Shown here one piece after another: positions 2,475-55,490 of a DNA stretch of 64,000 nucleotides (its first letter is position 1; every line of letters begins with the position of its first letter). Origin of the DNA: a phage. Made by a program: the position numbers and the translations under genes. The notes beneath the pieces were generated by a model, which was given only the letters and a program-made list of their open reading frames with translations, was not told the origin of the DNA and made no database searches. Location: sequence record PZ534511.1, one strand, 5' to 3'.

Positions 2475-2675
2475 ATGGGCAGATGTTCTAAAGGTGGCGA
2501 TCCTGTAGTCAGATACGGTGACTGGCTAGAGGTGTATGATCTAGGAGGTAAGCTAGTGTATGCCTCTAGGATCACCCAAGATATGTGCTCTGACATGTTC
2601 AACAGATACCTTGCATTTAAGGCCAACATAAACCCAGACGAAATTTCCAAAATTAAAACAAGGAGAGCTAAATAA
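2475..2675 (+). CDS. hypothetical protein
   Basis: ORF packed between neighbours. Confidence 0.35.
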   Translation: MGRCSKGGDPVVRYGDWLEVYDLGGKLVYASRITQDMCSDMFNRYLAFKANINPDEISKIKTRRAK

Positions 2676-3658
2676 TGCTAAAACTGTGCACTGCAAAGAT
2701 TATTGCTGACAGCATTTCCGAGAAAGGTAAGCGTATCACCACTTTTGAACTAGAGTATCCTCGAATTATTCACTCAGAGCTTATGACGCACCGAGTGTTC
2801 AGCCGAAACGCCATGTCTTCCCGTGCAGTACCTGTCGGCAAGATGCTGCAACAGATTGTGGAGAATCCGGCAATGCCAGTTCGCTTCGGTGTAAATAAGC
2901 GAGGAATGGAAGATGGTGGAGAACACGATCAAAAGATCCGTGTAGAGTACACTGACATGGAGCTAACTCCTGAAGAGTTTTGGAAAGAAGCTGCAAAAAA
3001 CGCCGCTTGGCATGCAGAGAAGTTCGCCCTTGCTGGTTACCATAAGCAAGTATGTAACCGCTTAGTGGAGCCGTTCCAGCGCATGAAAACAGTTGTAACA
3101 AGCACCGAGTGGAATAATTTTTTCCACCTCCGTTGCTGGCACGATGCGGATCCTACGATTCAGATGTTAGCTAATTGTATGTGGGAGGCTCTTGAGAATA
3201 GCACTCCTGAAATCCTTAAACCGGGTCAATGGCACACACCATATGTAGAGCACGTTTATTTGGACGGCGAGTTTAACTATGCTGTACGTGACACAGAAGG
3301 AAAGCTTTGCATTCTCGATACTGGAGAAGCTCTGTCTATTAGTGCTAGTTGCTGTGCACAAGTATCTTATCGAAATATTGACAGCACGTTTGAAAAGGCA
3401 GACAGTGTGGCTAAAAAATTGATTGGTGGGGATCGTATTCATGCAAGCCCTTACGAGCACCAGGCAACACCTATGGATCACGATAATGCAATGGAACGTT
3501 TAAACTACTATCTATCTTCATGTGAAATCACACAAGACAGCTGTGTTTGGCAGGAAGGTGTAACCCATCAAGACCGTGATGGTAAATTCTGGTCTGCCAA
3601 CTTTTGTGGGTGGGTTCAGCACAGACAACTGCTTAATAACCACTTCGTGAAAGGTTAA
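2675..3658 (+). CDS. thyX: FAD-dependent thymidylate synthase ThyX-like
   Basis: THRVFSRNAMSSRA aligns to ThyX signature RHRxxSxxxxSxR(Y). Confidence 0.6.
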   Translation: MLKLCTAKIIADSISEKGKRITTFELEYPRIIHSELMTHRVFSRNAMSSRAVPVGKMLQQIVENPAMPVRFGVNKRGMEDGGEHDQKIRVEYTDMELTPEEFWKEAAKNAAWHAEKFALAGYHKQVCNRLVEPFQRMKTVVTSTEWNNFFHLRCWHDADPTIQMLANCMWEALENSTPEILKPGQWHTPYVEHVYLDGEFNYAVRDTEGKLCILDTGEALSISASCCAQVSYRNIDSTFEKADSVAKKLIGGDRIHASPYEHQATPMDHDNAMERLNYYLSSCEITQDSCVWQEGVTHQDRDGKFWSANFCGWVQHRQLLNNHFVKG

Positions 3659-46837: not shown

Positions 46838-47219
46838 TTGCTGCTTCTCCTGCATTCATCAGATCTGCCATAGCGTCACCCACGAAGAGAACAACCACAT
46901 CGTTGACAGCGTCAGCATCATCTTTATTGACGTTGCTGAATTTAGGACACACAGCAATGATCATATAGACACCGTTACCAACCTGAACTGTCCGTGTGGT
47001 GCACATCATGGCGGTATTTGTGCCTTCTTTGAAGGCGAAGCCTTGAAGACGCTCCTCTAAAGTGTTACCGGTAGATTTCAGAAGCGCCAGCTCGTCCAAG
47101 TCATAGATGATATCTCCGGAAGTTAGTGTTGCCTTGCCATCAGACACCATAATAACTCCATCAGCACCGTCAAGCTTAGAGGCTTCAAAGATATCAATAT
47201 CCCAAATATTTTTCATCAC
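46827..47219 (-). CDS. hypothetical protein
   Basis: ORF. Confidence 0.45.
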   Translation of the reverse strand: MMKNIWDIDIFEASKLDGADGVIMVSDGKATLTSGDIIYDLDELALLKSTGNTLEERLQGFAFKEGTNTAMMCTTRTVQVGNGVYMIIAVCPKFSNVNKDDADAVNDVVVLFVGDAMADLMNAGEAANED

Positions 47220-47476
47220 GCTTCCTCGTCGTCTAAGGAGTTGAAGATTTCACCGAAGTATTCTAAGACTTCTAGCTCCCGTGTGGTGCAGAAAACACAG
47301 TCACCGTTGTCATCCTCGATAACGGCCTCTTTACCCAGCACATCTACTTCAAGTTTATCGTTCAACAGGACGGCCCCTGTGTAAACTTTGTCAGCTGTGC
47401 AGTCCCGAAAAGCGGAGTCCTTCTCCAGATAGTCTGGCTTAACCTTGGCTTTAATTCGTTGATATTGTTTGGTCAT
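47216..47476 (-). CDS. hypothetical small protein
   Basis: internal ATG with AAGGAG RBS. Confidence 0.4.
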   Translation of the reverse strand: MTKQYQRIKAKVKPDYLEKDSAFRDCTADKVYTGAVLLNDKLEVDVLGKEAVIEDDNGDCVFCTTRELEVLEYFGEIFNSLDDEEA

Positions 47477-47539
47477 TGCTATGGTCTCCTTTTTCTTAGA
47501 TGGGGCCATTATATCTGGCCCCATCTTTCTTGTCAAGTA

Positions 47540-47794
47540 TTAATGTTCAGGTTTTACAAAAACCACTTCGTTAACGGTGCACCAGACAGAATCTCCTTCA
47601 TCATCTTTAAAGGTAAGGCACTGGGCTGAGTTTTCCAGCTCATCAATCTCTTCTTGTGATAAAGGAGCCCCTTCTTCCAAAAGGGCTTTTACTAAAGGGT
47701 TCTCACAAAACTCTGCTTCATAAATAGCACCAAGCGTGCAATCTTTAAAAGCTCGGTCATTTGCAACGCATGCTGGTTTCAACATGATTTTCAT
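47540..47794 (-). CDS. hypothetical small protein
   Basis: ORF with GAGGAG RBS. Confidence 0.45.
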   Translation of the reverse strand: MKIMLKPACVANDRAFKDCTLGAIYEAEFCENPLVKALLEEGAPLSQEEIDELENSAQCLTFKDDEGDSVWCTVNEVVFVKPEH

Positions 47795-47870
47795 TTTAGC
47801 AGTCTCCTCAATTATTTAAAAATCAACTCTCTGTTTGTGTGAAGCATCTTATATCTAATCTTACTTCTTG

Positions 47871-48242
47871 TCAATGACTATTTTCAATCAGCCACACAGG
47901 GTCGAGGTAAATTTGTTGGCGTGTTGCCCAATGACAAACTTCATTGTACGTCTGAACCTCTTTGTCTGTCAATTCACGAATAGGCTCATCTATACCCTCA
48001 TTTTTGTGGTAATCCCATTCTGCGTCTATCTCCCACAGCCATGACTTGTTGTCACCACGCTTACGCACACAGAAGTCACCAGGGCGGCCTGCCAGTGCAT
48101 TTAAGAACTCGTTCTCCACTCGCTCCTGGAGAATACTGAGGAGCAAAACGTTGGAGCATGATCGTAAAATATGCTTCAGCTCACAGTCATCGATCTCAAC
48201 TTCGATACGTTGTTTGACTGTGTGGGTACCTTTTACTAACAT
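47871..48242 (-). CDS. hypothetical protein
   Basis: ATG with GAGGAGG RBS (track ORF used TTG). Confidence 0.45.
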   Translation of the reverse strand: MLVKGTHTVKQRIEVEIDDCELKHILRSCSNVLLLSILQERVENEFLNALAGRPGDFCVRKRGDNKSWLWEIDAEWDYHKNEGIDEPIRELTDKEVQTYNEVCHWATRQQIYLDPVWLIENSH

Positions 48243-48252
48243 TCTACCTCCT

Positions 48253-48447
48253 CTAAACGAACTCTGCAAGGGTTGTGTTGTTCACTGCACCACAGTAAAT
48301 GGAGTATCCCAGCCCATTAGAGTGCAGAAACCACGGAGTGCCGAAATTATCTTTCACGTAGACATCGCCGTTGCTTGTAAAGGGCCAATATTCTTCACCA
48401 AGGGTGAAATACCTACTCATACCCTCAGCCAGATACTTTACTTTCAT
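48253..48447 (-). CDS. hypothetical small protein
   Basis: ORF with AAGAGGA RBS. Confidence 0.4.
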   Translation of the reverse strand: MKVKYLAEGMSRYFTLGEEYWPFTSNGDVYVKDNFGTPWFLHSNGLGYSIYCGAVNNTTLAEFV

Positions 48448-48671
48448 AGGTCCTCTTCAACAGCTACAAACTTGGCAAGCAGGGTGGTTCCGTAGATATG
48501 ATACTCACCGTTTGCCAGATGGGAGATAAACCAGGCAATCCCTTCCTCGTCTTTAATCATCTTGTTTGCACGATCTTTATCGTAATAAACCTCGTAGGTC
48601 TTTCCTTCTTTAAAGAAGGACAGGTCTGTCATCTTTTCTTCTACAAAAGTAGCTTTAACCAAAGTTGTCAT
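48444..48671 (-). CDS. hypothetical small protein
   Basis: ORF with AAGGAG RBS. Confidence 0.4.
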   Translation of the reverse strand: MTTLVKATFVEEKMTDLSFFKEGKTYEVYYDKDRANKMIKDEEGIAWFISHLANGEYHIYGTTLLAKFVAVEEDL

Positions 48672-48952
48672 TGATCGGTCTCCTTCTTGTTAAGTCTGAA
48701 TACTGCAATAATAGCATTCCCAAGGTGCAGTGTCAAATCATTTCCAAGATACCACAACATTCCACGGTCATCTTTAATGAAAGGGTAACAATCTGGTGCC
48801 TTCCAGACATTGTACACTTTCCCAACCTGAAAGAAATCAGGCCCTGTTGGGATTTTGGTGCCAGGCCACACTTGAGATACCTGAACACACTCCACCTGCA
48901 TAATAACAGGAATAGTCATGGATGTAAATGTTTTTGTTGGTTCTACTACCAT
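48668..48952 (-). CDS. hypothetical protein
   Basis: internal ATG with AAAGAGGAG RBS; avoids overlap with polymerase exon 2. Confidence 0.4.
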   Translation of the reverse strand: MVVEPTKTFTSMTIPVIMQVECVQVSQVWPGTKIPTGPDFFQVGKVYNVWKAPDCYPFIKDDRGMLWYLGNDLTLHLGNAIIAVFRLNKKETDQ

Positions 48953-49001
48953 AAAAGTCTCCTCTTTGCTCAACAACACTTCCATGTGTTGATAGTTTAC
49001 A

Positions 49002-49355
49002 TTAGTGACAATCACCCCAATTACGACCACACAAGTATTCACCTGTGATCTGGAACGGGACTCCCATCATTTTAGAAGCTTGCCAGAAGCAATGCACCAC
49101 CATTTCACCCACAGGGCTCCAGATAAGTTCAAGCTTTCCGTCATCGTTCAGGATAGGATCGTACACCGTGTTTCCGTCTCTGTCAACCACTTCGTTTCCG
49201 TCCTCATCCTTGCGTGCCTTTTTGTACTTATGACCGTCGAACACATGAAGTTTGGCTTCCTGCTCTGCCTTAAATGCTTCCAATTCTTCAATTGTGTCGA
49301 AGGTGTACACAGTCTTATACTTAGGCGTGTCAGGGACCTGAAGTTGGTACTCATC
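49002..49355 (-). CDS. DNA polymerase (family A), C-terminal segment / exon 2
   Basis: begins DEYQLQV (completes motif C HDE) and ends GRNWGDCH-stop, matching family A C-terminus (Pol I ...NWDQAH); preceding ATG has no RBS. Confidence 0.6.
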   Translation of the reverse strand, partial: DEYQLQVPDTPKYKTVYTFDTIEELEAFKAEQEAKLHVFDGHKYKKARKDEDGNEVVDRDGNTVYDPILNDDGKLELIWSPVGEMVVHCFWQASKMMGVPFQITGEYLCGRNWGDCH

Positions 49356-50198
49356 CATCTGTTCAGGTAGGTCGTTAAGCTACCCCGCACCATTACGTGC
49401 ATAGCCATACAGTTTCCTGTATGGATCGGACTACCTCACTGCCTTGGTAACAAGGCACCTCCCATTTCGACCGCACTTGCTGGCCTACTCTACTCGCTTC
49501 TTCACACCAACCTGTGTTGGAGCTATGCTTTCGATAGTCTCTGAACGTTACTACCAGGTGTAGTTTTTAGAGATATGTTTCCACTGTCTTCTTTGCTTTA
49601 TAGCCCTGACGGTCTCATAAGGATATCCAAGATCCCTAATCTCGCATTGTCGTAGACCACTCTGCAACAGTTCGCAAATCTCTATTACCTCATCTTCTGT
49701 CAGCACAGCGTTGGCATTATACTCACCAACTGGCCTTACTCTGAGGTCATTATCATAGGCGTGCTTGATATTTCCACCAGGGGTGGTCCATTCCAGGTTC
49801 CAGTATGCATTGTTGTACTTATTCCCATCCTTATGGTTCACCCATGTGAGCCTTTCAGGATCCGGGTTTGATACAAAGCATTCAGCAACCAGGTGGTGGA
49901 CACCTTTTGTGCACTGCTTCCCCTCGATTAGCATGGTTACGCAAAGGTAACCTCTACCATTATCAAAACAAAACATTGTTGTATGATCACGTTTCGATAA
50001 AGGTATTGTTCCATCATCAAACACGGTATACCCGTGATAATCAGCTGTTCTAGCCATTTTAACTACACCCCTTTAGTCTTCGCTGCGGATTAGCATATTG
50101 AGCTTTTACCATACTCAGGTGTAAAAGTCAACTTAGCTTTCCCGTCAATTAAAGAGGTTATTCGACATAGATCACTCTATGAAGCCACAATGTTATTT
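49356..50198 (-). mobile_element. putative group I intron carrying an HNH homing endonuclease ORF
   Basis: interrupts polymerase exactly within motif C; exon ends in U, insertion ends in G; HNH ORF with own RBS; GC-rich structured 3' segment. Confidence 0.5.
49551..50057 (-). CDS. HNH homing endonuclease (HNH_3 type)
   Basis: LTWVNHKDGNKYNNAYWNLEW HNH_3 core; located inside polymerase insertion. Confidence 0.75.
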   Translation of the reverse strand: MARTADYHGYTVFDDGTIPLSKRDHTTMFCFDNGRGYLCVTMLIEGKQCTKGVHHLVAECFVSNPDPERLTWVNHKDGNKYNNAYWNLEWTTPGGNIKHAYDNDLRVRPVGEYNANAVLTEDEVIEICELLQSGLRQCEIRDLGYPYETVRAIKQRRQWKHISKNYTW

Positions 50199-52622
50199 AT
50201 GGTAATAGATAATACGACGGACACCTTCATCGTACCACCCACGCTTCACCATTTGGTGGTGCATGAGTATCCCAACTAAGTCACACAGCGATGCACCACC
50301 ATTCTGTTGGTATGCATTAAGTAAAGAGTGTTTAGATCGGGTCCAGATAGCATGACCATCAAAAGAGTAGATAAACTTCTTACCCGTTGCTTCCCAGAAT
50401 TTCTCCAGATCCTCTTTACGCCCCTTAAGACCAGGGTTGGCATCCCAAAGTGCATCGATTACCCTTTGTCCCAACTCTGGAGAGATGTCCAGCATATCTG
50501 CAACTTTATCTTTTTGTGCCCCGTACATAACCCCATACGTGATAGGTTTACCGTCGTTACGAGACACCTCTCTGCCTGCTACTTTTGTATATGCCTCAGC
50601 ATTGTTTTGGTGTGCGTCCCCGTTACTTACAACATCATAATACAAGCCGTTGTCGAACTCAAAGGCACCCCAAGCCCCGATAAGCTGCTCTAAGTTGGAC
50701 CCGTCAATACCGATCTGAAAGTATCCAGGAGGAACACCCCACAGACTACGCATCTCTTTACCCATAACCACTTTAGGAGATGGTTTAGGCATGTTTGCAC
50801 AAATACTGTGTTTCTGTCGTGAAGTGTTTGTTAACCCAGAACTTTTAGCAGGAAGCTTATGGTCAATCTTCAAACGTGGGTGATTAAGAAGACCAGTATC
50901 AACCTTATCCTCCTTGATTGGATCAAGGACCGATCTGCGGTTTCGCAATGATAACCACAAGACGATATCTTTAGCCATCTCTCCGTTCAATTTTTCAAGA
51001 TTCGGGCATAGGTGTCCAAACGTATCTTTCAGTTGCGGAGAAGTAATAAGTGCCCTAGCTTTTCTACGTATTTTCCCGAATACTTCCTTTTTAATCCTTT
51101 CGGAGTTAGGAAAGCTTCGGAACTTGTGCACGGTTGTCTGGAACTTAGCATCAGTTTTGTTCCAGAAGTTGATAATCAGGTCACAATACTCTGACTCTAA
51201 AAGCTCGTCCATATATGCATATACTCGTGCATCAACATCTGCATCAGGTAGAGCTTTCTTCTTGCTGTCTTTAGTTACATCCTTAGTTCTCCACATTGTC
51301 GGAAGCCAACCAGCACTGATCAGGTATCGCTTAATGTCGTCCTGGTTGCTGATTTTCATAGGTATCTTGCAGTCCGGCATTCGCTTCTGCTGTAGATCAC
51401 TTATTGCCTGATCCATTAGCTCTTTAGGTAAAGGTTGTGGTGTGGAGGTGCCCTTAATATAGCCTCTCAAGAAATCAGCCATCTTATCGGGGTCTTTGCA
51501 GCCCATCTCTTCACACCATTTTATCCCTATCTTACTGACATCTCCTGTAGAGGTAAATGCTCGCTTAGGTGGGGCTTTGAACTCTAAAGCGCTCATGTCT
51601 ACAGGGTAGCCAAGCTTATCTTTTAACCATTTCCAGCCATTATTGGAAATTGTCCCATCTTGGTTGAACGGCTTTTCAGGGAATTTAGGCCGCTGAGATA
51701 TTGATAACTCTTTTAAAGGAAGTTGAGGTTCAACACGATCAGCGATCTCTTTCATCCACGCATCACAGCGGTCACGTAAAGCAATAGCCCCGTCTATGTC
51801 GAAATACACACCCTGACGGGCCTGCAGCTCCATCAGGAAGTGCTGCAGCATGCCTCGGCGTAATGCGTTCTTCCAGGTGATCTTCTTGAACCCTTTCGGC
51901 TTCTCTTTGGCAGGATCGTACATAAAGTTCTGCATGTCAGATTTGCCGTAGAATACACCTTTTGATTCCGCTACCAGCTCTTTCCAGAGCAGCTCCTGGA
52001 TGATAACGTCCTCGAATACACGATCCACATACTTCCACAACGGAAGATCGCGCCAGTCATCAATTTGAACTTTCTGGTTACCAAGGGCGTAGCCCCATGC
52101 CATAAGGCCGTGAGGACCAACAGGCTGCATTTTCTTAGTAACCGGGTTGAATACAGAGTCCGGACAACCTTTTGGTAAAGGGCGATCAGGCCACAAAATT
52201 CGACTCATCGCCAACGTATCAAACAGGTTAACCTGGTGGTCGTTGATAGTCCCCATGCATTTAGGATCACGGAACATATCAAAATGAATACCGGATAATC
52301 TTTCCATCAGCATAAAGTCATAACTGTAGCAGTTATGGCAGTTCAAAGCTGTTGGTGACCAGTCGGAATTGCCTGTAAGCCAACCTTCCAACTCCGAAAA
52401 ATCTGCTATGCGAACTTCAAAATCTTTATAAAGAGTTTTCTTTGCCAGAATGAAGTTCTTGGCCTTTTCTATATCCTCCTCGGAGTAGTGTGTGCGGTCA
52501 TTTAGAGGAAGGAACAGCATAAAACGGTTCTTATTCAGCTCTTTAAACAGACCGCAGTGATAATAAAGATCTGGGTCTTCCAAAAGCCCAGAGGCCTCCA
52601 GATCGAAGCACCAATTACTCAT
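50199..52622 (-). CDS. DNA polymerase (family A), N-terminal segment / exon 1
   Basis: Exo I FDLEASGL; motif A-like GIDGSNLEQL; motif B-like RNDGKPITYGVMYG; ends ...RRIIYYH just before expected HDE. Confidence 0.8.
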
Positions 52623-53353
52623 ACTGTCCCCTCCTGTTTCTTCTCAGCATTCTTTCTTGCAGCTATTGCATCGTCCCTATTCTTGAAATACCCAAGGCAT
52701 TTCCTTTTACCATCTACATAAATTCTGGCTACCCATCTTTCATGGGTTTTATCCCAATTCACCCCTGAGCAACCGCTGGTATTATTATACTGCACGGCTC
52801 TTCCACTCTTGTGCGAAAAACCATTATCTTCGAAGAACTTTCTTGCCCACTCTGCCTCTTCAAAAGTTCTGTACTGGCCTAGCCAGACCCTTTCCCCTAC
52901 AGAGTCTGTGCCTTGAGCTATCCATGCATCTCTTTCTTCAGAATAGTGCACCCCGACCCTGCCAGATTTGTTGTTGCTACGAGGTATCTTGCAACTTTTC
53001 TTTTTGTTATCTGTGGGCTCGAGTAGTTGCAAATTTTGAATACTGTTATCAGCCACACCACCTGTTTCCCTTATCTCCTTGATGTGGTCAACCTCATACC
53101 CTTCCGGTACAGGGCCGTTAAACATTTCCCAGATTATGACGTGGGCACCTTTAGTGCAATGCTTTCCTAGACTAACTACAGGCCTGCCATCAGCATCTTG
53201 CCCCTTGTCAGCTCTGGAGCCTGCTGAAGTTTTAACATATCCTACACCGCTACCTGCCAGAATGTCTATCTTCCAAAAAAGATTTTGACCGTCATACTCC
53301 AGTATCTCTGACCACAGGTGGTTGGCTACACAGTGGTCTCTGAACTCGTTCAT
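52619..53353 (-). CDS. free-standing HNH endonuclease with two AP2-like DNA-binding domains
   Basis: EVDHIKE...NSIQNLQLL HNH core; two RVGVHY/SGVNWD...W.A.I...G AP2-like repeats. Confidence 0.7.
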   Translation of the reverse strand: MNEFRDHCVANHLWSEILEYDGQNLFWKIDILAGSGVGYVKTSAGSRADKGQDADGRPVVSLGKHCTKGAHVIIWEMFNGPVPEGYEVDHIKEIRETGGVADNSIQNLQLLEPTDNKKKSCKIPRSNNKSGRVGVHYSEERDAWIAQGTDSVGERVWLGQYRTFEEAEWARKFFEDNGFSHKSGRAVQYNNTSGCSGVNWDKTHERWVARIYVDGKRKCLGYFKNRDDAIAARKNAEKKQEGTV

Positions 53354-53411: not shown

Positions 53412-55490
53412 TTAAAAAGGTGTTTCATCATCTTCAAAACCGGGGACCGGATCAGAAGATGGATCATCGTACTGGAGGTCTTCCTGCGTGTCAACAGGCT
53501 TAATAGTAGGAGTTACAACCTTATCAGCTACAACCTTGCCCATAGGTGTTTCTACAACTGCATGCTCTTGGTCCTCAAACATGGCCTGAGGTCTCCAAAC
53601 AACCTCCCCACCTTCTCCGTCTGTAAACATCTGCATTTCTTTGTCCCAGTACCAATTACTGGCATCATGGAACTTACCTGTATGTGGGTCCATAACCAAA
53701 GTATCCGCAATACCCAATGTTTTTGCTGGACGGTTTTTAAGACCTACTAAACGGACACGACCACGAGAACGATCTACCATTTCTTCAGCCTCAACACCTA
53801 TGACTACCCAACTCAACTGTTCAAGCCCAGCCGATCCTCGCAAATTCTCTTTTCGCACAGGATACCAGAAAGGTAACGGGTTACCATCCTTGTCCTTAGG
53901 AGGCACAATCTCTGTACGTTTGAGGTGAGCGATCACTAGGATAAACACGTTAAACTGCTTACAAAACGCAGCCAGTTGGGTCATAGCCATGTCCAGCTCT
54001 TTTCGCTCATCCTTAACATTAAGCCCTGAAATTACCATGGACAGGTGATCCAGCACAATATAACGGCAATGGTACAGGCAAACCATTTGCTTAAGCTTGG
54101 TAATCAACTCGTCCACCGGAATAGATCCGAAATGTTTGAACACTTTGATTTTTCCAGCTTTTGCCCATGATTGGTGAATCTCTGCGTGTTCTTGATCAGT
54201 TAAAAACTGGCTAGGATCTTCAACAAACTCTTTAACATCAAACCCTAACTGGTTTGCATACAAGGAGTTAATTGCTTCCTCTGGGTCCTCCTCAAGATGA
54301 ATCATGCATAGACGATCATCCTCTTCGTAATCATCAGCCTTTGGACATGTCGGGTCCATTAGGTATCTTGCAATACAGTGTTCCAGTTTTTTAGCTACAG
54401 TTGTTTTACCGCCTCCTGATGGACCTGTAAGCATTACAAGTGTCCCTTTGTGCAAGCCTTTCAGCATTTTTTGCAGTTTTGGGAACTCTGCGCTGATATC
54501 TACCCCGTTGGAAGTCTTTTTCCGCAAAGATTCGATAGAGAAGTCTTCTAAATCCGACACAGCATCCGGCACATACTTAACAGGATGCCGGAACATGTTT
54601 ACAATATCTTCCAGCTTTTTAGCCTTCAGCATGTCACGGATATCTTTTACACCATCAGGGTCGTTTACCTCGCCAGGATATTCCACGTGGTAAACGTTAT
54701 CAGCCATCAAAAATGCTGCGATATTATGTGTGGCTTCAACACCTTTGATAACGTGTTTTTGCTTCTCTATCTCGTTAGCTGCATCGTTGTCCATTGCAAG
54801 GACCACTGTTCCGTAGCTACGGATAAATTTCTCATTGTTTGCAAAAGTATCTACTGCGTTTGCACATCCACAGTTAATTCCAACAAAAGGTAGGCAGGGT
54901 TTTCCTGCCAGATCACCACCGTTGATAACTGCGTCGATCCCGTCCTGGACCTCTTTAGCCCACTGCTTCACTTTTGCCGGGGCTTTAGCGTTGGTGAGAA
55001 TCCCTTTTACTTGTATCTGATATGCAGCCTGCCATGCTGCAATAACATCACCTTCTCCCTCACAAACGTTAATCTGCTTACGGTTGTTGGAAGATGCACA
55101 CAGCTTTTGACCAAACATCTGGGAGTTAGCCTTCACTATGCCTACTACAGACCAGTGCCCTTTCTGCTCTTTCGGCTTAGTCCAGTCACGCTTTTTGAAA
55201 CCGGACAGATTTCCGTAGCGGTCGTAATATGGGAAATATGTTGCAGTGACTGTCACACCATCTTCTTGGGACAATGCTGATCGCACACCAAAATATTGTG
55301 CAGCCATCAGACCGATATTTTGTTGTGGGACAGGGACAATTTTAGTATTTTCTAAAACAGTCTCTACAGTTTCAACCTCTTTTTCATCACGATAGTCTCG
55401 TTTCATACTACCCCCACTTTTGTATCTTGTTGCAACCGGGTTTGGCTCACCGAAACGGTTGTATGCAGATGCCATAAATTTACTTCCCAT
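53412..55490 (-). CDS. primase-helicase (T7 gp4-like: TOPRIM primase + DnaB-family helicase)
   Basis: TOPRIM VCEGEGD and MDNDAANE; Walker A GPSGGGKTT; acidic C-terminal tail ending ETPF. Confidence 0.8.
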   Translation of the reverse strand: MGSKFMASAYNRFGEPNPVATRYKSGGSMKRDYRDEKEVETVETVLENTKIVPVPQQNIGLMAAQYFGVRSALSQEDGVTVTATYFPYYDRYGNLSGFKKRDWTKPKEQKGHWSVVGIVKANSQMFGQKLCASSNNRKQINVCEGEGDVIAAWQAAYQIQVKGILTNAKAPAKVKQWAKEVQDGIDAVINGGDLAGKPCLPFVGINCGCANAVDTFANNEKFIRSYGTVVLAMDNDAANEIEKQKHVIKGVEATHNIAAFLMADNVYHVEYPGEVNDPDGVKDIRDMLKAKKLEDIVNMFRHPVKYVPDAVSDLEDFSIESLRKKTSNGVDISAEFPKLQKMLKGLHKGTLVMLTGPSGGGKTTVAKKLEHCIARYLMDPTCPKADDYEEDDRLCMIHLEEDPEEAINSLYANQLGFDVKEFVEDPSQFLTDQEHAEIHQSWAKAGKIKVFKHFGSIPVDELITKLKQMVCLYHCRYIVLDHLSMVISGLNVKDERKELDMAMTQLAAFCKQFNVFILVIAHLKRTEIVPPKDKDGNPLPFWYPVRKENLRGSAGLEQLSWVVIGVEAEEMVDRSRGRVRLVGLKNRPAKTLGIADTLVMDPHTGKFHDASNWYWDKEMQMFTDGEGGEVVWRPQAMFEDQEHAVVETPMGKVVADKVVTPTIKPVDTQEDLQYDDPSSDPVPGFEDDETPF

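Follow-up and report, generated by a model that had tools for sequence, protein, structure and literature searches.

A probable mobile IA2-type group I intron with an HNH open reading frame in the family A DNA polymerase gene of a Vequintavirus

The interrupted DNA polymerase gene

The DNA analysed here in its full length of 64,000 nt (the window; PZ534511.1) comes from a Vequintavirus, i.e. an rV5-like E. coli phage, which shows 97.7% identity with phage FFH2. The two open reading frames (ORFs) on which a first-pass annotation of this sequence had been built both appear on the minus strand in the ORF listing: one of 809 aa (50193–52622) with the C-terminus ...RRIIYYHK followed by a stop codon, and a second one (49002–49358) which reads M-DEYQLQV...GRNWGDCH up to its stop. 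Based on the ORF itself, alignment with T7 gp5 and the boundary to the intron-less phage slur12, exon 1 of a family A DNA polymerase gene extends over 50199–52622 (-), with 808 codons up to ...RRIIYYH and the U of CAU as its final base. Exon 2, located at 49002–49355 (-), consists of DEYQLQV...GRNWGDCH plus stop codon and holds the motif C carboxylates as well as the C-terminal His.

FDLEASGL, GIDGSNLEQL and the motif B-like RNDGKPITYGVMYG, which had been pointed out before, are all found in the exon 1 ORF, with the last two aligning with motifs A and B of T7 gp5, respectively. Exon 1 alone scores 28.6 bits against Pfam DNA_pol_A, i.e. under the curated cut-off of 34.3, and exon 2 matches the PHROG 8888 DNA polymerase with E = 1e-58. 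The earlier suggestion that joining YYH to DEYQ restores the HDE of motif C is borne out by alignment of YYHDEYQL with T7 WVHDEIQV: the break falls between the His and the Asp of this motif (YYH|DEYQ, corresponding to VH|DEIQ in T7), and removal of the insertion brings motifs A, B and C with the catalytic Asp and Glu back into one reading frame. The predicted spliced product of 925 aa aligns over motifs A, B and HDE with residues 468–658 of T7 gp5 (E = 2e-16).

Between the exons lies an insertion of exactly 843 nt (49356–50198 (-); AAAUAACAUUGUGG... to ...CUGAACAGAUG), which is preceded by an exon U and has a G at 49356 as its last base. Length and terminal bases are as read at first pass; alignment with slur12 fixes both boundaries and places the insertion exactly between the motif C His and Asp. 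In slur12, but also in naam, ECP26, S127 BCL3 and EduardKellenberger—all of them intron-less—the sequence runs uninterrupted as ...TATTACCAT|GAYGAR..., i.e. exon 1 and exon 2 are contiguous, and 177 aa around the junction occur in one piece with up to 100% identity in intron-less vequintaviruses. At the start of exon 2, slur12 and naam have GAC GAA TAT CAG, and EduardKellenberger has the synonymous GAT GAG TAC CAA. For the window, the predicted spliced junction is ...UAUUACCAU|GAUGAGUAC... (CAU|GAU). The 3' part of the insertion is GC-rich, as had been noted, with 50% G+C vs 38% in the 5' part and 43% in the window.

A covarying group I core

At gathering thresholds, an Rfam scan of the window yields no match. 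In E-value mode, however, one RNA family matches in the entire 64 kb and on the correct strand, i.e. RF00028 (Intron_gpI), which covers the full model at 49406–50208 (-) with 29.4 bits against a curated gathering threshold of 50 bits (E = 2.4e-5 in a 1-kb search and 1.5e-3 for the whole window). ORF-less homologous introns reach 64.7–91.2 bits against the same threshold. One of these, in JLBYU08, has a core that differs from that of the window at a single position in 313 nt and scores 72.5 bits, which attributes the sub-threshold score of the window's intron to its 530-nt P6a insert.

The structure, which was drawn by hand, was assessed for covariation with 15 homologues from four Vequintavirinae genera and Vibrio phages. 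The raw MAFFT alignment had misregistered the 5' strand of P4, P5 and the P9.1 gap, and these segments were realigned by hand with N padding; phiTE, with no assignable P5, was entered as N there. Across all helices, pairing holds in 98.6% of cells, and compensatory changes are seen in 32 of 67 pairs, the P3/P7 pseudoknot included. The covariation score of 0.450, compared with 0.193 in shuffles, was attained by none of 500 shuffles, and slid controls gave only 32–43% pairing. P3 and P7 are 100% paired only if drawn as a pseudoknot, as opposed to 33% with plain nested brackets. Covariation backs P2 to P9.2 plus the P3/P7 pseudoknot, so that the P3–P9 core, which had been named at first pass as the thing to look for, is indeed present, and the insertion contains a complete group I (IA2-type) core.

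In detail, and all on the minus strand, P1 (50185–50202) is formed by exon CCAU (50202–50199) together with intron A1A2 pairing with UUGUGG (intron nt 9–14, 50190–50185), with U·G as the splice-site wobble pair in each of the 15 sequences. P1, with GUGG (intron nt 11–14) as the guide portion, is paired in all 15 sequences, yet invariant, and the same invariance applies to P10, in which CAUU (intron nt 7–10) can pair with GAUG of exon 2 (95% paired); both are consistent with the model, with their invariance providing no covariation proof. The guide had previously been sought in a GUGAU facing an exon AUCAU, but this assignment fails: the exon end does not contain AUCAU, and GUGA, at about nt 24, forms the GNRA loop in the P2 hairpin (CAUAGA-GUGA-UCUAUG, 50166–50181), where all 6 pairs have changes in both strands and every cell is paired (100%).

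Further inward, the 5' strand of P3 (CCUCUU, 50152–50157) meets its partner at 49458–49463 in 6 pairs, 2 of them compensatory and 100% paired. The P4–P5 domain (50084–50147) comprises P4 UG(A)CGGG/UCCGCA, P5 AGC/GCU, P5a UUGA/UCAA and P5b CUUUUAC...GUAAAAG, and its extension has a fold energy of -11.3 kcal/mol; CGGGAAA...AAUCCGCAG in this region is strongly conserved in the Rfam alignment. P4/P5 are 97.7% paired with 2 compensatory pairs in the 15 homologues, figures which hand registration makes lean slightly towards the structure, in P4, P5 and P9.1 only. P6 (GCG/CGU) and the P6a arm, which contains the endonuclease gene, occupy 49545–50083. They are followed by the P7 5' strand G(A)GACUA (49535–49541), which pairs with UAGUCC (49428–49433; 6 pairs, 2 compensatory, 100% paired) and with P3 makes up the catalytic-core pseudoknot.

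The adjacent segment (49469–49534) consists of a variable P7.1 (49489–49534), a GUA linker (49486–49488) and P7.2 (GGCC-A-GC-AAGU-GC-GGUC, 49469–49485; 6 pairs, 3 compensatory, 100% paired), with GUAG invariant in all 15 sequences. An arrangement of P7.1–GUA–P7.2 between the P7 5' strand and the P3 3' strand is a hallmark of IA2 introns (PMC3428280), and by this one criterion of the Michel–Westhof scheme the intron would be placed in subgroup IA2. The 3' strand of P3 (GGGAGG, 49458–49463) and the P8 hairpin (UGCCUUG-UUAC-CAAGGCA, 49440–49457), in which 6 of 7 pairs show compensatory changes, together span 49440–49463. The remainder (49366–49433) holds the P7 3' strand, P9 with its GAAA loop (49405–49424), P9.1 (49386–49401) and P9.2 (49366–49384), with compensatory changes in 5 of 8, 2 of 5 and 4 of 5 pairs, respectively. 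A terminal G is common to all 17 of 17 homologous introns.

Intron ORF, allelic diversity and alternative readings

The ORF inside P6a (49551–50057 (-)) codes for a 168-aa I-HmuI-like HNH protein, i.e. a putative homing nickase, and is preceded by AAAGGGG as a Shine-Dalgarno (SD) sequence, in agreement with the ribosome-binding site assigned to it at first pass. It matches the PHROG 59 HNH family (E = 1.5e-36) and I-HmuI itself (PDB 1U3E, E = 3e-5), with vnHKDGNKyNN..NLeWtT..N including the catalytic His and Asn being kept, and only weakly Pfam HNH_3 (17.7 bits with a cut-off of 24.8, E = 0.0028). Orthologues are found at the same intron position in Av-05, GEC_vB_MG, CR9 and W70, whereas ORF-less relatives show a hairpin of 16–21 nt where the P6a ORF sits. 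The closing stem of P6a has its 5' side, GGGGUGUAGU (50070–50061; 9-nt core GGUGUAGUU, 50069–50061), between SD and AUG and its 3' side in the last codons of the ORF, ACUACACCU (49564–49556; core AACUACACC, 49565–49557), and an ACUA/UAGU pairing spans the ORF's stop codon. The duplex energy of this stem is -17.3 kcal/mol vs -9.2 ± 2.4 in shuffles, and the corresponding stems of Av-05, GEC_vB_MG, CR9 and W70 have other sequences. As modelled, masking of the SD by the P6a stem probably limits translation of the endonuclease as long as the ribozyme is folded.

Of the 114 matching Vequintavirus records, 60 were sampled at even spacing; the polymerase gene is intron-less in 30 of these, contains an ORF-less intron in 14 and an ORF-containing intron in 16. 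Intron presence is patchy even among phages that are >95% identical, which suggests that gain and loss are still ongoing. Two features of a mobile intron are present, namely an endonuclease ORF in a peripheral loop (P6a) and, among close relatives, polymorphism for presence/absence at a single site. Could the element nevertheless be in decay, with a ribozyme that still splices, possibly helped by a host or phage factor, and an HNH ORF that is no longer an active homing endonuclease, so that the intron as a whole is inherited only vertically? The weak Pfam HNH score could be read in this way, and about a quarter of the sampled vequintaviruses have ORF-less derivatives with a 16-nt hairpin for the ORF, as the homing-cycle model predicts. 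We consider decay rather unlikely, however, as the 168-aa ORF is intact in the window, FFH2, Mangalyan and WalterGehring, its orthologues are conserved across four genera with the I-HmuI motif HKDGNKxNN...NLxW...N kept, and the patchy presence just described also speaks against it.

Much less probable is a truly split polymerase, with subunits of 809 aa and 118 aa being translated separately and a free-standing HNH gene inserted between their genes. RefSeq/GenBank do list FFH2, APECc02, FV3 and others with two 'DNA polymerase' CDSs and an HNH CDS in between, and the second ORF begins with an in-frame ATG. Yet, as the first-pass annotation had seen, this ATG has no SD sequence in the 20 nt that precede it (TTAACGACCTACCTGAACAG), and the ATG itself is missing in relatives with introns that end in ...UAUUG or ...UUUUG. 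Moreover, the break separates the motif C His from the two catalytic carboxylates, a group I core with covariation lies in the RNA between the two ORFs, a free-standing endonuclease gene leaves the existing ORF-less insertions unexplained, and the homologous insertion in phage CB7 is removed from the mRNA (PMC7344957). An intein or a group II intron can practically be dismissed, since—although the related phages Mangalyan and VB-EcoM-WM have an in-frame intein-like insertion elsewhere in this same gene—the window's insertion has an in-frame stop one codon into its sequence, does not contain a reverse-transcriptase ORF and gives no Rfam group II match, with RF00028 as the sole RNA family.

Our preferred reading, to which we assign a probability of roughly 94%, is therefore that of a mobile IA2-type group I intron with an HNH ORF in the essential family A polymerase gene of a Vequintavirus. 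It draws on computationally established boundaries, fold, covariation, ORF family and presence/absence polymorphism. The initial idea of a group I intron that splices itself and comes with a homing endonuclease is thereby supported by covariance model, intron-less homologues and covariation alike.

Related introns and the proposed homing cycle

The element is real and of an ordinary, well-known kind, and it is already annotated in sister phages. In the GenBank records of the BASEL phages WalterGehring (MZ501111) and MaxTheCat (MZ501094; Maffei et al. 2021, PMC8594841), the polymerase CDS is given as a two-piece join. In WalterGehring, the intron measures 842 nt, contains the same HNH ORF and occupies the same site, and the region is 96.5% identical to the window, whereas the 276-nt ORF-less intron of MaxTheCat and rV5 differs from that of the window in the peripheral elements P5, P7.1 and P8. 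For the DNA polymerase intron of the Pectobacterium phage CB7 (Certrevirus), which carries CB7_50, splicing has been reported by RT-PCR (PMC7344957). This intron and its counterpart in phiTE (Certrevirus, Vequintavirinae) are found at the same site (...RRIIYYH|DEYQLEV...) in the same host gene and phage subfamily, and they belong to the same family, with P1, guide, P2, P3, P4, P7, P7.2, P9 and P9.2 in common and linked by compensatory changes. They also carry an HNH ORF in P6a, but are shorter (687 nt vs 843 nt), have shorter P5 and P7.1 peripheral elements and feature a different, shorter HNH ORF (127 aa), which can be aligned with the window ORF only over the 53 aa of its HNH motif region, at 38% identity. 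By analogy, we infer that the copy of the phage studied here is also spliced.

Group IA2 polymerase introns with an HNH ORF in P6a occur in the T7-like phages ΦI and W31 and, as far as the account of Bonocora & Shub (2004) relayed in PMC3428280 goes, they interrupt the same point, i.e. the motif C His/Asp codon boundary (E. coli Pol I site 881; T7 WVH|DEIQV). The intron in Yersinia phage vB_Yep_15 is of this ΦI/W31 type. In the T7-like same-site intron, the 5' exon ends with CAU and the 3' exon starts with GAUGAG, but its core sequence is unrelated and does not include a P2, and its guide GUGCAC matches the T7 exon. With this P2-less core and unrelated HNH proteins, it can be ruled out as the same element as that of the window. 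Among the matches listed in a distant blastn search with the ORF-less vequintavirus intron, none is a T7-like phage, and BLASTP of the T7-like HNH protein against that of the window gives no significant match. The T7-like intron looks to have invaded this site independently. The SPO1 and SP82 introns (I-HmuI and I-HmuII; PDB 1U3E) are likewise group I introns in a phage family A polymerase gene, and, among solved relatives of the window ORF, I-HmuI is the closest (174 vs 168 aa, same catalytic motif), but these introns occupy another insertion site (674 in E. coli numbering, fingers) in another host clade (Bacillus phages).

In the proposed cycle, the pre-mRNA would fold into P1–P10 with the P3/P7 pseudoknot, and an external guanosine would attack 3' of the exon U, whose wobble partner is G11 in the guide UUGUGG. 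Docking of the terminal G (49356) would follow, and ligation of the exons as CAU|GAU would restore ...IIYYH-DEYQ..., i.e. motif C with its two catalytic carboxylates, in a 925-aa polymerase. In the folded ribozyme, part of the SD and the spacer would be paired with the final ORF codons, with the endonuclease probably being translated at a limited level. When relatives with an intron-less polymerase allele co-infect, the endonuclease presumably nicks or cuts that allele close to the insertion site, and recombinational repair would copy the intron into the cut allele (homing).

The main value of these data lies in annotation, i.e. in a single 925-aa polymerase produced from a spliced mRNA. RefSeq/GenBank records of FFH2, APECc02, FV3, rV5 and many others present the polymerase as two or three separate proteins, and the original rV5 paper reportedly described it as a truncated 775-aa enzyme. 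The finding in itself opens no new biological question. A broader picture, which we put forward tentatively and would not yet bet on, is that one intron lineage reached the identical motif C His|Asp boundary in four Vequintavirinae genera plus unclassified Vibrio myophages, that two or more different HNH genes have come to sit in its P6a, which has also been emptied repeatedly, and that every form with an I-HmuI-like gene has a covarying stem which pairs the SD/start region with the gene's own last codons. If endonuclease translation is indeed tied to ribozyme folding through this stem, and if convergent targeting accounts for the unrelated T7-like intron at the same site, the natural alleles would represent an unusually complete test system for the homing cycle as well as for the intron-plus-endonuclease assembly model, which reportedly goes back to Bonocora and Shub. 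Intron-less, ORF-less and ORF-containing alleles coexist in near-identical, easily grown E. coli phages, which makes them a handy system for work on intron homing and on exclusion among therapeutic or typing phages in competition.

Insertion at motif C of the polymerase gene

An 843-nt insertion on the minus strand, lying between two polymerase ORFs, is a mobile group I intron of a standard kind, interrupting a phage polymerase gene and encoding a putative HNH homing endonuclease. Escherichia phage FFH2 matches the whole of 48900-52700 with 97.7% identity, and dozens of further Vequintavirus (rV5-like) genomes match it with 92-98% identity. The features described in the first-pass annotation were all found where it had placed them. 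The minus strand has an 809-aa polymerase ORF (50193-52622) ending ...RRIIYYH-K-stop, a 168-aa HNH ORF (49551-50057) and a short 118-aa ORF (49002-49358), which reads M-DEYQLQV...GRNWGDCH-stop and has an ATG without a preceding Shine-Dalgarno sequence. Joining YYH to DEYQ indeed restores HDE: the alignment of the 925-aa product to residues 468-658 of T7 gp5 (E = 2e-16) takes in motifs A, B and C, which read GIDGSNLE, RNDGKPITYGVMYG and YYHDEYQL in the window versus GIDASGLE, RDNAKTFIYGFLYG and WVHDEIQV in T7 gp5.

Uninterrupted homologues placed the insertion site. With 177 amino acids across the predicted junction as the tblastn query, this stretch was found to be continuous in many vequintaviruses, with identities of up to 100% (e.g. 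slur12, A12a, naam and magaca). The DNA reads ...ATTATCTATTACCAT|GACGAATATCAGCTT... in slur12 and ...ATTATCTATTACCAT|AAATAACATTGTGG...CTGAACAGATG|GATGAGTACCAACTT... in the window, and by this comparison the insertion is exactly 49356-50198, preceded by an exon U and ending with G, as had been proposed. Shorter insertions occupy the same site in JLBYU08 (329 nt), SYGMH1 (328 nt) and, as a 276-nt form, in rV5 itself, MaxTheCat, PDX and others.

Near-identical copies of the element have already been annotated, and splicing has been demonstrated for a homologue. The BASEL records of WalterGehring, which has an 842-nt intron with the same ORF as the window, and of MaxTheCat show a polymerase CDS joined from two segments, with comparative annotation used for the intron boundaries (PMC8594841). 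The RefSeq record of FFH2 still has two polymerase CDSs, and the rV5 genome paper reports introns in the terminase gene only and a polymerase of 775 aa (PMC3606486). For Pectobacterium phage CB7 (Certrevirus, same subfamily), two HNH introns in the polymerase gene were both reported to be spliced by RT-PCR (PMC7344957); the one containing CB7_50 (687 nt, identical to the phiTE intron at 659/687 positions) sits at ...RRIIYYH|DEYQLEV... and belongs to the same family as the window intron. In the T7-like phages ΦI and W31, IA2 introns with an HNH ORF in P6a are described at E. coli Pol I position 881 (PMC3428280). This type was found in Yersinia phage vB_Yep_15 (site WVH|DEIQV), but differs from the window intron in its guide, which is GUGCAC, in lacking P2 and in encoding an unrelated HNH protein. 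At this codon boundary it is another intron, independent of the first.

Ribozyme structure and covariation

At curated Rfam thresholds, nothing in the window matched. In E-value mode, however, the group I intron model RF00028 gave a full-length match at the insertion (49406-50208, minus strand), the only one in 64 kb, with 29.4 bits against a curated threshold of 50 and E = 2.4e-5 in a 1-kb search or 1.5e-3 for the whole window. The low score is due to the ORF. All ORF-less homologues exceed 50 bits (JLBYU08, 72.5; SYGMH1, 75.6; MaxTheCat, 64.7; phage 18-1-2, 91.2; KP12, 69.8; three Vibrio phages, 65-77), and outside P6a the window and JLBYU08 introns differ at 1/313 nt.

In the secondary structure drawn by hand, P1 pairs exon CCAU plus intron AA with UUGUGG (nt 9-14), with a U·G at the splice site, and is followed by P2 (CAUAGA-GUGA-UCUAUG), P3 (CCUCUU with GGGAGG), P4 (UG(A)CGGG with UCCGCA), P5, P5a and P5b, P6 (GCG with CGU), P6a, which holds the endonuclease ORF, and P7 (G(A)GACUA with UAGUCC). 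It further includes P7.1, GUA and P7.2, in that order, and P8, P9 (GAAA loop), P9.1 and P9.2, again in that order, as well as a possible P10 of exon-2 GAUG with intron CAUU (nt 7-10). The first-pass reading as a group I intron with a homing endonuclease is supported, but its P1 is wrong: the GUGAU about 20 nt inside, taken as the guide, contributes GUGA as the GNRA loop of P2, and the exon does not end in the supposed partner AUCAU.

Seventeen introns were gathered at this site, from Vequintavirus (the window, FFH2, Mangalyan, WalterGehring, JLBYU08, SYGMH1 and MaxTheCat), Seunavirus or unassigned Vequintavirinae (GEC_vB_MG and KP12), Certrevirus or unassigned Vequintavirinae (phiTE, CR9 and W70), Avunavirus (Av-05 and 18-1-2) and three unclassified Vibrio myophages with minimal introns of 253-254 nt. 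Fifteen of the 17 provided distinct cores, which were aligned with P6a excised and P4, P5 and P9.1 registered by hand. Standard pairs fill 98.6% of 991 cells, 32 of 67 pairs show changes on both sides, and the covariation score is 0.450 versus 0.193 ± 0.011 for shuffled alignments (reached by 0/500), whereas sliding the partners by 1-3 columns reduced pairing to 32-43% with at most seven compensatory pairs. Compensatory changes are most abundant in P2, P8, P9 and P9.2; P3 and P7, paired only in pseudoknot notation, have two each, and P1 and P10 are invariant, which is compatible with the model without being covariation proof. P7.1-GUA-P7.2 is the feature by which introns are assigned to subgroup IA2 (PMC3428280), and GUAG is invariant there in 15/15 sequences.

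The intron ORF and its closing stem

The 168-aa ORF matches PHROG 59 (HNH endonuclease; E = 1.5e-36), and its nearest solved relative is 1U3E (E = 3e-5), i.e. the homing nickase I-HmuI from the polymerase intron of SPO1, with which it shares the HKDGNKxNN...NLxW motif. In Av-05, GEC_vB_MG, CR9 and W70, this place in the intron is taken by orthologues of 163-172 aa, and in phiTE and CB7 by a different HNH protein (127 aa). In all cases, the ORF takes the place of the short P6a hairpin of ORF-less forms (e.g. CAUCC-GAGA-GGAUG).

Where the ORF is I-HmuI-like, long-range pairing of the Shine-Dalgarno/start region with the last ORF codons forms a stem that closes P6a. In the window, GGGGUGUAGU pairs with ACUACACCU and ACUA with UAGU (-17.3 kcal/mol versus -9.2 ± 2.4 shuffled). 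Corresponding stems of other sequence occur in Av-05 (GGUAUAGU/ACUAUACU), GEC_vB_MG (...AAUGA/UCAUU...), CR9 (...CACGUG/CACGUG...) and W70, but phiTE with its unrelated HNH ORF has no such stem (-7.5 versus -7.5 ± 2.2, z = 0.0). Intron endonucleases of T4 are described as being restrained in their translation by such a stem, and we infer that, once the ribozyme has folded, the P6a stem would restrain translation of the putative endonuclease also here.

Mobile elements and alleles at the polymerase locus

A free-standing HNH-AP2 endonuclease gene (244 aa, 52619-53353, minus strand) lies between the primase/helicase gene (53412-55490, minus strand) and the polymerase gene, with whose start it shares 4 nt (ATGA). 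The polymerase gene is thereby flanked by another mobile endonuclease, present also in FFH2 and WalterGehring but absent from JLBYU08 and Mangalyan, where polA directly follows the primase gene. Mangalyan polA (1461-4859 in L003) has a 323-aa in-frame insertion after ...NGDAH, near amino acid 671 of exon 1 (about 50610 in the window), which starts with CYSGDTQILT, ends with VAVCGN before a Cys and contains two LAGLIDADG-like blocks; these motifs suggest an intein that carries a homing endonuclease. The coverage pattern suggests the same in VB-EcoM-WM; the window gene is free of it. Upstream of this intron site in the polymerase gene, relatives have an additional group I intron, namely phiTE (L006, about 2638-3350) and CB7, in both within motif B (...GVTYG|VMYG...), Vibrio phage 424E50-1 (L011, 51-300; 93 bits with RF00028) and KP12 (L016, 1-36). 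There is therefore room at the polymerase gene of these phages for two introns and an intein, plus an endonuclease gene at its flank.

Downstream of polA (47216-49042, minus strand) lies a series of short ORFs (64-132 aa; hypothetical proteins in relatives). Two adjoining ones (47216-47536 and 47540-47794) have in common '...FKDCT...Y.A......' followed by 'DD.GD.V(F/W)CT..E...', a sequence likeness suggesting tandem paralogues. Among the relatives, 16 or 17 GenBank 'Campylobacter phage' records (MG0656xx, host given as Campylobacter jejuni) share 86-98% identity with E. coli vequintaviruses in the polymerase region, and up to 100% in the 276-nt form of the intron; the stated host seems questionable and may stem from contamination or a labelling error.

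Vequintavirus records hit by a 200-nt probe with the intron-less junction at its centre numbered 114. Of 60 sampled from these at even spacing, 30 lacked the intron, 14 contained a short version without the ORF and 16 the 843-nt form. Exon 2 starts with GAU, the U of which would pair with A8 in P10, in 17/17 intron-containing alleles, and with GAC in four of five intron-less ones examined. The fifth, EduardKellenberger (L023), is intron-less yet has the intron-type synonymous codons GAT GAG TAC CAA, as would be expected from precise intron loss or recombination with an intron-bearing phage. The GAU/GAC pattern itself is compatible with a constraint on splicing as well as with co-conversion. 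Knowledge of this element will be of use in mending split-gene annotations, and its alleles provide a handy natural series for homing studies.
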